Shown here: positions 14,242 through 21,991 of the stretch, piece by piece | Position numbering within the stretch: position 1 is the stretch's first letter | Layout: each line of letters opens with the position of its first letter | Source: Eledone cirrhosa | Taxonomy: Eukaryota | Length of the DNA stretch: 64,000 nucleotides | Assembly: GCA_964016885.1 (NCBI GenBank) | Contig: OZ024749.1 | Location: 24,366,001-24,430,000, forward strand | Direction: 5' to 3' | Notes under the pieces: generated by a model | Told to the model about the DNA's origin: nothing | The model's database searches: none | The model's input: the letters and a program-made list of their open reading frames with translations, nothing else | Position numbers and translations under genes: made by a program

Positions 14242-15122
14242 ATATTGGTGGGAAGGGTCAAGGCGAAGTACTGGCCAGTAGTGTATATGGGGGTGGGTGT
14301 GATGGTGAGATGTTGGTGACGATCGGTGGATAAGATGGGCTGTGGTGTAGTGGTGGTTGATTTTCCTTGGCGTGTAGAGTATGTGGGTGTGTGGGTTATG
14401 ATATGGTGGTGGTTATGGTTGCTTAGTGGGATGGGCTGACATTATCACATAGCATGTATTTCATATTCTTATAGCATTTTAAGAAGGACCGTCGAGCTGC
14501 GGATTATTGAGTCGGGTAGGATCGATAGAGATCGAACCTTGAGCTGATCAGTGGCGAAAAGCGCGTTACCTATCAATAAATGTAATGAAGGAATAATCAA
14601 TCGTCCTTTTTATCCTTTCTATATATATATATATATGTATATATGTGTATATATATATATATATATACATATATATATATATATGTATATATATATATAT
14701 ATATATATATATATATATATATATATATATATATATATAATGTATTTCTATATATATATTGATATGTATTTATATATATATATATGTATATGTATATATA
14801 TATATATATATATATATATATATATATATATATATATGTATGTATATATATATATATATATATATATATATATATATATATATATATATATATATATATA
14901 TATATATATCGTTTCTGAATTTGTTTAGCAAGATTCTTTATCTGAAATCGTGTGTTGAAACCGATATTGTTATACTTTGGGAGGGTCATGTTGCCAATAA
15001 GAAACACACGCACCAGTTGCTTTCACTTCAATTTAATTTAATATATATTTATAAATTTACAAATTTATAAATTTCTGGTTGGTTGGTTGGTTCCACAACC
15101 AGATAGTTGTTTATATATATAT

Positions 15123-15167
15123 AGTCATAGTTCTTTCGTCACACACTCTGTGACCTCTTCAGTGACT
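15123..15167 (-). ncRNA. Minimal type I hammerhead in P1 pseudo-LTR
   Basis: agtca-CTGAAGA-g-gtcac(agagtgt)gtgac-GAAAG-aa-CTA-tgact. Confidence 0.8.
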
Positions 15168-15463
15168 GGGGATTTCTTTCTTCGTTTCTGTGCCTTTCCT
15201 TTCTTCTATCCTACGCCATTTTGTTTGTGTGTGGGTTGCGTGCTCAGTTTGCGCATGCGCCACATCCGGGTGTCTGTGTGTGTTTGTGTTCATTTTTCTA
15301 TTTTTCTATTTATATTTGTTTGTTTATTTATTTATTTATTGTTGGTTGGTTGTTTGTTCTATGTGTGTGTGTGTTTTCATTTTGTCTTGTGTGTGTTTTC
15401 ATTTTGTGTGTGTTTTCAATTGCAAGTTGTTTATATATGTGTGTGTGTGTTTTCATTTTGTCC

Positions 15464-18400
15464 TTAATTGTAAGTTGTGATGTTGCTGTTCCACTCATAT
15501 TTTCTATTTAATTTTGGTTTTAATTCTTTTATGCTTACTGCCTCTGTAATTTGCCTAAACATTGCGTCTTTCTTGTGTGTGGATTCTATTTTTATTTCTA
15601 TGCTCTCTAATTTACCCCTGTGTTCTATCTTAGCATGTTGGTAGAGCACAGATGATTCTTTACTATCTTGGAGGTCTCGCCAGTGTTCATTTATTCGTTC
15701 CCCTATACTACGAGCTGTCTCACCTATGTACACTATATTTTTGTTTCTACATTGTCCCTCAGTACATCTTATGCTATATACTACATTTCTAGTTTTACAG
15801 TTAATATGGGGGCTTATTTTACAGGTTATACATTTCTTATCTATACATGAGGGTCTTTGGAACGGGTATGTCTTGCTAATAAGTGTTTTTACGGAGGTAC
15901 CAGGTCTTTCTACTATCTTAATATTGAGATTATGTTTCTTTAGGGCCCTTCTAAATTTGTAGGCTAGTTCGCCTCTAGGGGTTGTATTGATGAACATTAC
16001 ACTCTGGTATTTATTGCTATCATACCATGAGTTTATTCTATTGGCCTTGTTCTTAGTTCTTTCTATTCTATTCCAAAATTTGCTCCTATACAAGGGGCAG
16101 GTCCCATTTATGTCATTATTTACCATTTTTTCCCATTTGGTTCTGGCTCCTTTATACACTCTGATTCTATCTCTCTGATTGTAGCCAGAGAACTGCATAC
16201 GGTGGATAAAGTGTTGTATGTGTCTCTCTAGTTCTTCGGGGTTGCACATGCGGGACACATTTCTCATCACCCGTATCAAATCCGCAATCAGTATGTTGAT
16301 TTTGGTATGGTCCGAAATGGCCGAGTTTCGGTGGATCAGATGTTTGGAAGTCATGGGTTTGGCATAATGGGAATGGAGGATTTGTTTTTGGTTGTTAATA
16401 GTATCTAACCAGAGCTCTGTGTCTAGTACAGGTAATCGATGGTTGGGGTGTCTACTTGGGTAGTCTATAGTAACTCTAATGCTCTGGTGGATGGAGTTTG
16501 CTATTTGCTGGATGCTTTCCATTGTGTTTTTCTCAGGTTCCTGACTGTTCTTTAGTGGGGGTGTCTTAACTACGATGTTTATATCATCTACGTAGCGGGA
16601 GTACATTATCAGGGTTAAGCTGTCTTCTAATTGTTCTTTAAGTTTTTGTTTAAGTCTACTGTCCCACCATACCATGAACAAGTTAGCTATGTCGCCTGCA
16701 ATGCTAACACCAATGGCTGCTCCTTCCTCTTGGGCATATGTTTTACCATTAAATTTGAACATATGTTCCTTAAGGGTTAATTTTATGCTGGCCCCTACCG
16801 CATGTGCAATCATTTTCTTCAGTTCATCGTGGTTTTCGGGTGTCCGTATGGCTCTGGTCCACCCGTTCCATCTATCTGTGTGGGTTTTCTTGGCCATTGA
16901 GGTAATGGTAGGTGGTCTGCCTCTTGCTGGTCTTGTAGGGCACAGGTTGCTAAGGTCATAAGTGTCTAGGTAACTATTACTATGGGTAAGCTTAAGTAGA
17001 AGTCCCAGCTCACTGGTATCAATCCCACGGAACTCAACCTTGCTCTCGCTGATCATTTCGACGCATTTCTCCACAGCAAAATCCACGTCAATAGATGGAT
17101 ACAGGGACACAACATCCATACTGCCTATTATGCAGTTTGTTAGGTCCCCAGATCGGTTACCCGCGTCGATTCTGCTGAGGAGGTCCTCCGTGCTGTCACA
17201 CACATCTGGGGACATCTCAATGATGGGGCGTATGATCAGGGAGAGGAAGTAGGACAGTCTGTAGTTACTAGCAATGTTAGCCCCACAGACTGGCCGTGTT
17301 GGTGGTCCCGCGACAGGGTCCCAGCCCGTTTTATGGTCTTTTCGAAGCCCATACAACGCCGGCACGTCATTGTTCCAGGCCTGGAAGTTGTTGGCAGTCC
17401 TTTTGTTGGGCTGCATTATATTTGTCCACATCACCATATGGGCATTGAGGGTTTTTTCTCTATCCTCATGCTCCTGTGGTGTTACCTCTCTTGTGTTAGT
17501 GATGTGGGGTTGCATTGCCTGGATGTAGTTTGGCAGGCTGTCAACCGACATTCTGCCAGACTTGTCTGTTGGAAAGCATGCTATCTCTCCATTACGCGAG
17601 CGCTGCATGAGCTTACGCAAGCCATTTGCAGATTCTTCTCCCAGTTGCTGGGCTTCTATTCTATTATGCTTCTTGCTATACTGTTCTATAATATTTCTAA
17701 GTTCGGATTTAGCTATACTAAATTGTGCTTCTGTTTGTTCATCGACCTGCGACGGCAACTGCGTGCGTTTGTTAAATGGCAAAGTCGTGGCGTGGACTCG
17801 TCGTAGGTCGAATGATTTATCGGAGGGGTTATAAAACGGAGAGTTCCAGGCTGCTGCTTTATGTGTACTAGCGCTATTGTTAGTTGTGTTGTTTCTATTT
17901 CCACCAACAGCAGCAGCCTCAGCTTCATGGTTGTTTCTATGTCTCTCATAATTACTCCTGTCTCTTTCCACTGGCTCAATGTTGTTATCTACCCTATTTT
18001 GTGTGTCTGTGTGTTCGTCTTGGTTATTCTCTTTGTCCTTAGTCTCCCTACTCCTTTTAATCCTATTACTTTCTCTTATTTCTCTGATTTCTGTGCTACT
18101 GTCATTACTTGTTTTCTGTGTCTGTGTGTTTGTTAAGATTGTAGTGGTGGTGAGAGGCATTGAATGTGTGTGTGTTGTTGTTGTTGATGTGTGTTGTTGT
18201 TGATGTGTGTTGTTGTCTCCGTGTGTGTGTGTGTTATCGTTGTTGTGTGTGTTGTTATTGTTGTTTGTGTTTGCGTGTCTGTTGTTGTTGTATCTGGGTA
18301 TGTTGCTGTTGTTGTTGTTGTTGATGTGTGTGTTGTTGTTATTGTTGTCTCCGTGTGTGTTGTTATTGTTGTTTGTGTCTGCGTGTCTGTTGTATCTGGG

Positions 18401-20805: not shown

Positions 20806-21101
20806 GGACAAAATGAAAACACACACACACATATATAAACAACTTACAATTGAAAACACACACAAAATGAAAACACACACAAGACAAAATGAAAACACAC
20901 ACACACATAGAACAAACAACCAACCAACAATAAATAAATAAATAAACAAACAAATATAAATAGAAAAATAGAAAAATGAACACAAACACACACAGACACC
21001 CGGATGTGGCGCATGCGCAAACTGAGCACGCAACCCACACACAAACAAAATGGCGTAGGATAGAAGAAAGGAAAGGCACAGAAACGAAGAAAGAAATCCC
21101 C

Positions 21102-21146
21102 AGTCACTGAAGAGGTCACAGAGTGTGTGACGAAAGAACTATGACT
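21102..21146 (+). ncRNA. Minimal type I hammerhead in P1 pseudo-LTR
   Basis: Mirror of 15123-15167; predicted cleavage after CUA (21141). Confidence 0.8.
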
Positions 21147-21991
21147 ATATATATATAAACAACTATCTGGTTGTGGAACCAACCAACCAACCAGAAATTT
21201 ATAAATTTGTAAATTTATAAATATATATTAAATTAAATTGAAGTGAAAGCAACTGGTGCGTGTGTTTCTTATTGGCAACATGACCCTCCCAAAGTATAAC
21301 AATATATATATATATATATATATATATATAAACACAAATATATATGTATTTATATATATATATATATATATATATATATATATAAACACAAATATATATG
21401 TATTTATATATATATATATATATATATATATATATATATATATATATATATATATATATATATATATATATATATATATAAACACAATATCGGAGAAAGC
21501 TTTTTAGTGATACACCGGCCAAATTCCAACTCACTCACCAAACATTAGGAAATAAGTGATTATATTCACAATTATGTGTTCGGGGTGTTGACTAAAAGTA
21601 TTGCGTGGAAAATTGGCTGTATTATTTCAAATGAGATATATCTAATATATCTCTTCCCAGACGGACGTCTCGTTTCATTACAGGATTACTACAATTTGGG
21701 TGAAATTATACCAATTTATGTAGGAGCTTGTATACCATCAATAGATATATATTCAAGTGGGCTCCTGTAATTCATCAGTGGGTGCGCCAATATATATATA
21801 TATATATATATATATATATATATATATATATATATATATATATATATATATATATATATATATATATATATATATATATATATATATATATATATATATA
21901 TATATATATATATATATATATATACCTATATGTATATACCTATATGTATATATATATATGTATATATATATATGTATATATATATATATAT

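Follow-up and report, generated by a model that had tools for sequence, protein, structure and literature searches.

We analysed a 64,000-nucleotide (nt) stretch of the genome of the octopus Eledone cirrhosa (NCBI GenBank assembly GCA_964016885.1, contig OZ024749.1, positions 24,366,001 to 24,430,000 of the forward strand; hereafter the window), centring on an insertion at positions 14910-21305 that an earlier sequence-only reading had described as a palindromic Penelope element. The insertion consists of two copies of a Penelope-like element (PLE), a left copy of 3511 nt (14910-18420, minus strand) joined head to head with a right copy of 2885 nt (plus strand), and the 3' ends of both copies face outward into (TA)n tracts. 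The features of this focal insertion are as follows.

14620-14909: (TA)n microsatellite, the left target tract (period 2 and 145.5 copies according to Tandem Repeats Finder)
14910-14963, minus: 54-nt 3' tail, present on the left copy only; its inner boundary is ambiguous by 2 nt (AT, common with the target)
14964-17848, minus: left arm, 2885 bp, defined by arm comparison
15123-15167, minus: minimal type I hammerhead-like motif of the left copy (core and stem II scan)
15464-18493, minus: 1009-codon open reading frame (ORF) of the left copy, the native 5'-truncated PLE frame to 18420 plus 24 chimeric codons
17849-18420, minus: 572-bp spacer, the additional 5' part of the left copy, coding for a low-complexity Asn/Thr/His-rich linker
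18420/18421: head-to-head junction of two 5'-truncated copies (inward extension 0)
18421-21305, plus: right arm, 2885 bp, tail-less, defined by arm comparison
18421-20805, plus: 794-codon reverse transcriptase (RT) and GIY-YIG frame of the right arm, without a start of its own (motifs and domain matches)
19153-19539, plus: RT motif A-B interval, 128 aa, holding a conserved fingers insertion (mirrored at 16730-17116, minus)
21102-21146, plus: minimal type I hammerhead-like motif of the right copy (core and stem II scan)
21306-21480: right (TA)n target microsatellite (Tandem Repeats Finder)

Direct comparison of the arms (14964-17848 and 18421-21305) returned the coordinates first proposed for them and for the 572-bp spacer, and neither arm can be extended by a single base outward or inward. 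As read from the right-arm side, no microhomology is detectable at the junction. The left copy is longer at both ends, by the 54-nt tail and by 572 nt of linker-coding sequence, and the two copies differ in length because the spacer, rather than being foreign, is the left copy's own linker-coding sequence. As to a target-site duplication, both flanks are (TA)n. The sequence-only reading had noticed a single mismatch between the arms (15423/20846, in the 3' untranslated region); pairwise comparison gives two, the second being 16208/20061 in a synonymous Phe codon, and because both lie where they leave the protein unchanged the two 794-aa translations are identical, as had been claimed. A-to-I editing as the source of these mismatches was considered and dropped, as there are only two and just one of them reads A>G in sense orientation. 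The arms diverge by 0.07% (95% range 0.008-0.25%), compared with 0.6-7% in four older inserts of the window with arms longer than 100 bp, which agrees with the proposed recent insertion, although arm divergence as a measure of age is confounded by polishing or RT errors, and polishing may have inflated the identity of the focal arms.

The insert is a PLE with a telomerase-like RT, a GIY-YIG endonuclease (EN) at the C-terminus and a minimal hammerhead-like motif. The right-arm protein carries DKSG at residue 95, D245 of motif A, Q373 of motif B, YVDD at 419, CX4CX2C at 668-676 and GIY-YIG at 689-710, with the EN C-terminal to the RT within one ORF. Pfam matches to RVT_1 (E 2.5e-4) and to GIY-YIG at residues 689-779 (E 2.5e-4) fall below and just below the cut-off, respectively. 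For an AlphaFold model of the protein (pLDDT 89.8), telomerase reverse transcriptase (TERT) structures fill the top five rows in Foldseek and the top fourteen in VIA (Z up to 14.5, root-mean-square deviation (rmsd) 3.5 over 361 residues), while the GIY-YIG catalytic domain of I-TevI matches model residues 686-785 (Z 10.1, rmsd 2.2). The DK residues, motif A and YVDD are kept across 50 aligned sequences, as are the Cys linker and the EN's CCHH residues, the last of these (C695, C700, H738 and H743) being invariant or at least 90% conserved; the DKG motif is present as DKSG, with D95 and K96 found in 56 of 56 homologs. The TERT-like RT, C-terminal GIY-YIG, CCHH residues and DKSG thus uphold the original assignment to PLEs. 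At 67% identity, a protein predicted in Octopus vulgaris is the best homolog. A sequence search of the PDB with the focal protein gave weak bacterial RT matches only, and the ESM Atlas returned unnamed or HTH_animal/DUF8422/GIY-YIG clusters without a clade name.

Judged against their homologs, both focal copies are 5'-truncated and lack the conserved N-terminal block of ~210-280 aa. Nearly half of the homologs that reach the arm start (27/56) continue for 214-512 aa further upstream; a P-K-F/Y motif occurs in 23 of these 27, and the N-terminal GxKF/Y region is lost from both focal copies. A profile search of the six-frame translation of the 64-kb window with the homologs' N-terminal block found no match. 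The left copy is truncated inside the low-complexity linker and the right copy just past it, at a position where homologs carry variable low-complexity linkers. There is also no direct upstream pseudo-long terminal repeat (pLTR) at the locus. The sequence-only reading had spoken of two uninterrupted RT-GIY-YIG cassettes; the 794-codon frames are indeed uninterrupted, but "cassette" overstates what is left once the N-terminal block is missing, and the open frames reflect the youth of the insertion rather than its completeness. Likewise, chimeric N-termini had been proposed for both long ORFs. This holds for the left frame, whose ATG at 18493 and 24 codons derive from the antisense of the right arm, but not for the right frame, which is open from 18325 and has its first ATG only at arm residue 81.

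Each arm also carries a minimal hammerhead-like motif where a hammerhead had been proposed for it. The right motif consists of a 5-bp stem I, CUGAAGA, one unpaired G, a 6-bp stem II, a GAAA loop, a vestigial stem III and a UA site. The core and stem II scan gave 5 matches in the window, where 60 randomised windows averaged 0.017. The orthologous motif of a related PLE family in the window keeps the core and shows two compensatory changes in stem II, with a weak stem I. On the other hand, Rfam does not recognise the motif: at gathering score there were 0 matches in the window, and at E<=10 over 20700-23600 the focal hammerhead was not listed, nearly all of the 104 matches being (TA)n noise. Folding of the hammerhead region recovers the expected stems with a z of only -1.33, so that energy alone gives no support, and the two folded 3' ends are no more stable than shuffles. 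Elsewhere in the window, a canonical-looking hammerhead at 23349-23419 (minus) matches Rfam HH9 weakly, at 28.5 bits and an E of 2.5e-4, which is under the gathering score, and a 37-bp palindrome lies near it at 23072-23108.

The focal insertion is not the only one of its kind in the window, which holds two siblings of the same family.

4747-4818: sibling insertion, a 34-nt tailed arm plus a 37-nt inverted tail-less arm
54112-54318: sibling insertion in the opposite orientation, a ~132-nt tail-less arm plus a ~75-nt tailed arm

The first of these is identical to the focal copy at 71 of 71 nt and its tail-less end is the same; the tail of the focal copy recurs in the siblings at 4747-4780 and 54260-54316. 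Two further insertions (44441-45505 and 59055-61130) belong to a related PLE family that is ~70% identical, with 57-61% amino acid identity to the focal protein. In one of this pair the tail-less arm is longer (~900 bp) and in the other the tailed arm (~1.8 kb). All five copies (4747-4818, 14910-21305, 54112-54318, 44441-45505 and 59055-61130) combine one tailed with one inverted tail-less arm, and all five tail-less arms end at GTATAACA(A)T-AT in (TA)n. Where a junction could be read, it has ~1 nt of microhomology (at 54243 and 45344) or an additional T (at 4781). Three of the five tail-less arms contain sequence not found in their tailed partners. Within the related family, arms of one insertion go together at 6 substitutions and 1 indel and arms of different insertions at 0 (a count of 12 columns including gap columns, 3 of them end gaps), and in another family 2 variants are shared within an insertion and 0 across, over 670 columns. 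A similar one-sided extension is seen in five more inserts of unclassified families. Overall, measurement of 10 inserts gave arm overlaps of 2885, 710, 469, 271, 146, 118, 60, 53, 16 and 0 bp, so that the focal copy, with an overlap four times the next longest, is the long extreme among them.

Inverted inserts of other kinds are also present. A short family in (TA)n forms near-perfect hairpins at 12161-12347 and 49253-49453 (53-60-bp arms, a loop of ~2-7 nt and a ~79-nt one-sided extension), with a third copy at 12589-12648 that is a solo arm. At 25263-25620, adjoining (TA)n, lies a palindrome with 146-bp arms, a 6-nt loop and a one-sided extension. A young insert in (TA)n at 38734-41334 has a 518-bp inverted arm and ~3.5 tandem units of 591 bp (99.9% alike), stopping 159 bp before the other end; it has no Pfam match or hammerhead and may be a non-autonomous element of PLE type. 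Three copies of an AT-rich family, which has fixed ends and inversions, lie at 13140-13981, 24118-25088 and 28720-30442, the third with 710-bp arms that are 2.5% diverged, and a degenerate inverted repeat (81% over 155 bp) with short internal duplications lies at 6953-7104.

The published accounts of such structures provide a context for these observations. An inverted 5'-truncated copy, a 30-40-bp one-sided tail and a (TA)n target are described as typical of PLEs, the tail being attributed to EN-mediated resolution and the origin of tandem and inverted repeats and of tails being named as an open question (PMC8557442). Head-to-head repeats are reported as the most frequent arrangement, together with long tandem and inverted structures and Asn-rich inserts, and the model favoured there is self-priming on an antisense template from palindromic junctions (PMC3846280). 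Long inverted repeats also occur inside the Penelope body (PMC3681739), and the protein of an anole PLE cleaves and extends both strands in vitro, prefers AT-rich DNA and starts reverse transcription at two sites, the interval between which is the tail (PMC11167929). The sequence-only reading's view of the architecture as exceptional is not supported, given the typical inverted, one-sidedly tailed layout (PMC8557442) and the long internal inverted repeats (PMC3681739) on record. Our literature search, which covered mostly non-subscription literature, found only the accounts cited here on head-to-head or twin-priming PLE structures; it found no published size distribution limiting PLE inversions to pLTR size, and none showing 2.9-kb arms.

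The geometry of the copies, their fixed termini, their truncation and the variants common to their arms are seen directly. We consider it more probable than the alternatives that they arose by priming from both ends of the target at two fixed sites on the RNA, with the cDNAs joined centrally. The element protein would nick both strands of the AT-rich target, by analogy with a different PLE (PMC11167929). [quoted passage not shown] Both cDNAs would be truncated, unusually late in the focal copy (3511 and 2885 nt), with one RNA molecule, or transcripts from a single master locus, probably serving as template for both. Finally, the cDNA 3' ends would be joined with little or no microhomology and filled in, leaving a head-to-head repeat with its 3' ends outward. 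Under two-ended priming with central joining, all five copies follow without extra events. A tail-less arm holding sequence that is missing from its tailed partner, as in three of the five, was not copied from that partner unless the centre was later deleted, and variants common to the arms of one insertion suggest a single template source.

Several points weigh against this account. The equal arms and ~2-7-nt loops of 12161-12347, 49253-49453 and 25263-25560 (unclassified families) look like fold-back self-priming, and the focal copy itself, with a tail-less arm nested in a tailed one and both long, suits fold-back equally well. Central deletions after insertion could produce the non-nested cases, and the shared variants could stem from two subfamilies whose activity differed in time, or from gene conversion. 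The mechanism is judged on the assembled sequence of one window.

Fold-back self-priming is the strongest alternative, though we think it unlikely. Here a cDNA primed at the tail end would have run for 3.5 kb and then folded back by 572 nt to serve as its own template, with resolution by the EN at the tail boundary. This would account for long, near-identical, nested arms, draws on published proposals of self-priming from palindromic junctions (PMC3846280) and of EN resolution of the tail (PMC8557442), and has near-perfect hairpin inserts in the same window beside it. However, without additional deletions it suits only 2 of the 5 copies of the focal and related families, the tail boundary in vitro is an RT start site (PMC11167929), and the sibling at 4747-4818 (0/71 mismatches) looks like a young copy with a non-nested tail-less arm and an intact junction.

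It is improbable that the locus is a functional one, serving either as a source of hairpin RNA that silences the family or to encode a chimeric protein of 1009 aa. Read-through transcription would give an RNA that pairs over 2885 bp, and the left frame has an ATG; small interfering RNAs (siRNAs) mapping to inverted Penelope regions have been reported (PMC3681739), and the hyper-editing signal of octopus is very high and tied to double-stranded RNA (dsRNA), with lizard Penelope heavily edited (PMC5625713). Against this, the focal protein is missing the conserved N-terminal block, youth alone would lead one to expect intact frames, and Penelope inverted-repeat siRNAs are said to silence inefficiently (PMC3681739). 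Family-wide silencing by hairpin siRNA, which the sequence-only reading had put forward, is for this last reason unsupported, and it would require read-through transcription at a locus that has no known element promoter because it has no upstream pLTR. Both hammerhead motifs would also be buried in the 2.9-kb duplex formed by a transcript that runs across the two arms. Extrusion of a cruciform is unlikely with a 572-bp spacer. As to host sequence, a Pfam scan that covered 88 out of the 92 candidate frames, the other 4 being tandem duplicates, gave 0 matches to a host gene or coding exon; such a scan would miss short exons.

The locus is almost certainly a genuine insertion, and an assembly or fold-back read artefact is very improbable. 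The 99.93% identity over 2885 bp is what an artefact would give, polishing could have homogenised real arms, and complex PLE insertions are known to trouble assemblies (PMC8557442). On the other hand, the mirror image halts precisely at a site that is specific to the family and found again in four independent inserts, the flanks show no mirroring except for one 188-bp, 71% match between simple-repeat tracts, the arms differ at two positions and the window contains no N. An artefact is unlikely because the sibling and related-family copies end at the same two sites, and this recurrence of both termini in independent copies sustains the earlier argument that the structure is not a fold-back read. 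Least credible of all are a pair of independent insertions at one site, or an inverted duplication that DNA repair made there later: the (TA)n tracts of the window have been hit repeatedly, but no target DNA lies between the copies, the pairing of tailed with tail-less arms is systematic and repair would not respect the tail boundary.

Taken together, the focal insert is probably a recent, single insertion of a C-terminal-EN PLE into (TA)n that was dead on arrival. The locus is a dead, recent PLE copy whose layout is already known and whose arms lie at the long end of the size range, and the inverted tailed/tail-less layout is the family's normal product. The activity of the family, claimed in the sequence-only reading, finds only weak support, the window holding no full-length copy.

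A second feature of the element concerns its RT. The motif A-B interval spans 126-132 aa in all 50 aligned sequences and at least 110 aa in all 170 of the 268 fetched proteins in which both motifs matched a pattern, a uniformity that is partly by construction because the sets were chosen by similarity to the query. Conserved residues of the fingers insertion within this interval are E280, L283, R306, P313, R326 and W330. By hand count in Fig. S1 of PMC8557442, the interval is ~57-60 aa in the Neptune, Nematis and Penelope rows, ~84 aa in one Naiad and ~115 aa in human TERT, the last count assuming the same block start. In a Hydra-like fragment of the window it is 61 aa, to a position ~5 residues further on. 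The Cys linker is similarly uniform, with a C676-C684 spacing of 8 in 43/50 and a C684-Y691 spacing of 7 in 50/50 sequences. A profile search returned 2347 representatives at E<=1e-30, not all of which need have the fingers insertion.

The fingers insertion would be as long as or longer than the insertion in the fingers domain (IFD) of telomerase, a feature for which reports to date cover N-terminal-EN clades and sporadic Coprina. Since it is ~70 aa longer than in canonical C-terminal-EN PLEs, the lineage may be unnamed. We found no described C-terminal-EN PLE with a fingers insertion in the literature, Repbase, Dfam and older subscription papers being outside the scope of that search. RPVCG and GGAIG have 0 matches in the available supplement of PMC8557442, a weak negative in that long sequence runs are cut there and its protein file appears to hold only the new clades. 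We therefore propose, tentatively and as somewhat less than an even chance, an unnamed and widespread invertebrate PLE lineage that combines a C-terminal Nematis-type EN with an RT fingers insertion ~70 aa over canonical length, and whose copies would bear the marks of twin target-priming on one RNA, from two fixed sites and with strand displacement.

If so, arm lengths and junctions across the octopus genome would directly test the origin of PLE inverted repeats and tails; already in one window, five related insertions have a geometry by which two-ended priming and fold-back can be told apart. The conserved fingers insertion also points to a PLE lineage of relevance to how the telomerase IFD arose. 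Octopus carries a high load of dsRNA and A-to-I editing (PMC5625713), to which such inserts may contribute.

Among other features of the window, PLE RT fragments at 26635-28047 (minus) and 51353-52213 (minus) have motifs like those in the Hydra rows of the PMC8557442 supplement, with no Pfam match. An uninterrupted 1029-codon long interspersed element frame at 31470-34559 (plus) encodes an AP endonuclease, an RT and a PHD finger at residues 769-812. This element is putatively RTE-like. Two 90%-identical copies of a ~210-bp repeat resembling a short interspersed element lie at 21991-22200 and 49006-49214, with no tRNA found by ARAGORN; a bacterial promoter scan and ARAGORN gave nothing informative.

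The proposed origin of the focal insert resembles the twin priming of L1, in which both target ends prime cDNA on the element RNA and the products are joined centrally to give a 5' inversion. In L1, however, the inverted piece is upstream, non-duplicated sequence and the priming sites vary, whereas the focal arms overlap and start at fixed 3' sites. Canonical EN+ PLE insertions share with the focal one the head-to-head inverted copies, 5' truncation, one-end tail and (TA)n target, as well as the 3'-end hammerhead, the single RT-EN frame and an Asn-rich low-complexity coding stretch (PMC8557442, PMC3846280); the focal insertion differs in having no direct upstream pLTR, a 2885-bp overlap and a tail of 54 rather than 30-40 nt. 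Its hammerhead, predicted from sequence, fits the minimal PLE hammerhead with its short helix I and an unpaired nucleotide before stem II (PMC4209133). Poseidon PAc of Anolis carolinensis has, like the focal element, two termini separated by the tail, an AT-rich target and a hammerhead, but no Cys linker, a property of its clade, and was studied in vitro, whereas the focal mechanism is inferred from genomic copies (PMC11167929). Rearranged Penelope copies in Drosophila virilis, with their long inverted repeats, likewise have an inverted body duplication able to form dsRNA if transcribed; siRNAs were measured there, while the focal locus is known from its sequence (PMC3681739, PMC3136932). As to clade, the Penelope/Poseidon clade is without the Cys linker that the focal element has, which sets the latter in a different clade. 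Naiad and Chlamys have an N-terminal EN and no canonical hammerhead, in contrast to the C-terminal EN and hammerhead motif found here. Hydra lacks CCHH and has a CxCX5C linker and DKT (PMC8557442), where the focal element has CCHH, CX4CX2C and DKS, although the focal RKDHK resembles the KDHK of Hydra. Neptune shares the C-terminal GIY-YIG with CCHH but has ~25-35 aa from CxxC to the next Cys (Fig. S2 of PMC8557442), against 7 residues in the focal element. Nematis shares the C-terminal GIY-YIG with CCHH and the reduced CX2-5CxxC linker, and its Nematis_C4 and Nematis_Cr (Fig. S2 of PMC8557442) have a spacing equal to the focal C-x4-C-x2-C-x7-C-x6-Y; Nematis nevertheless has no A-B insertion, its interval being ~60 aa in C_remanei (hand count, Fig. 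S1) against the 126-132 aa of the focal set.

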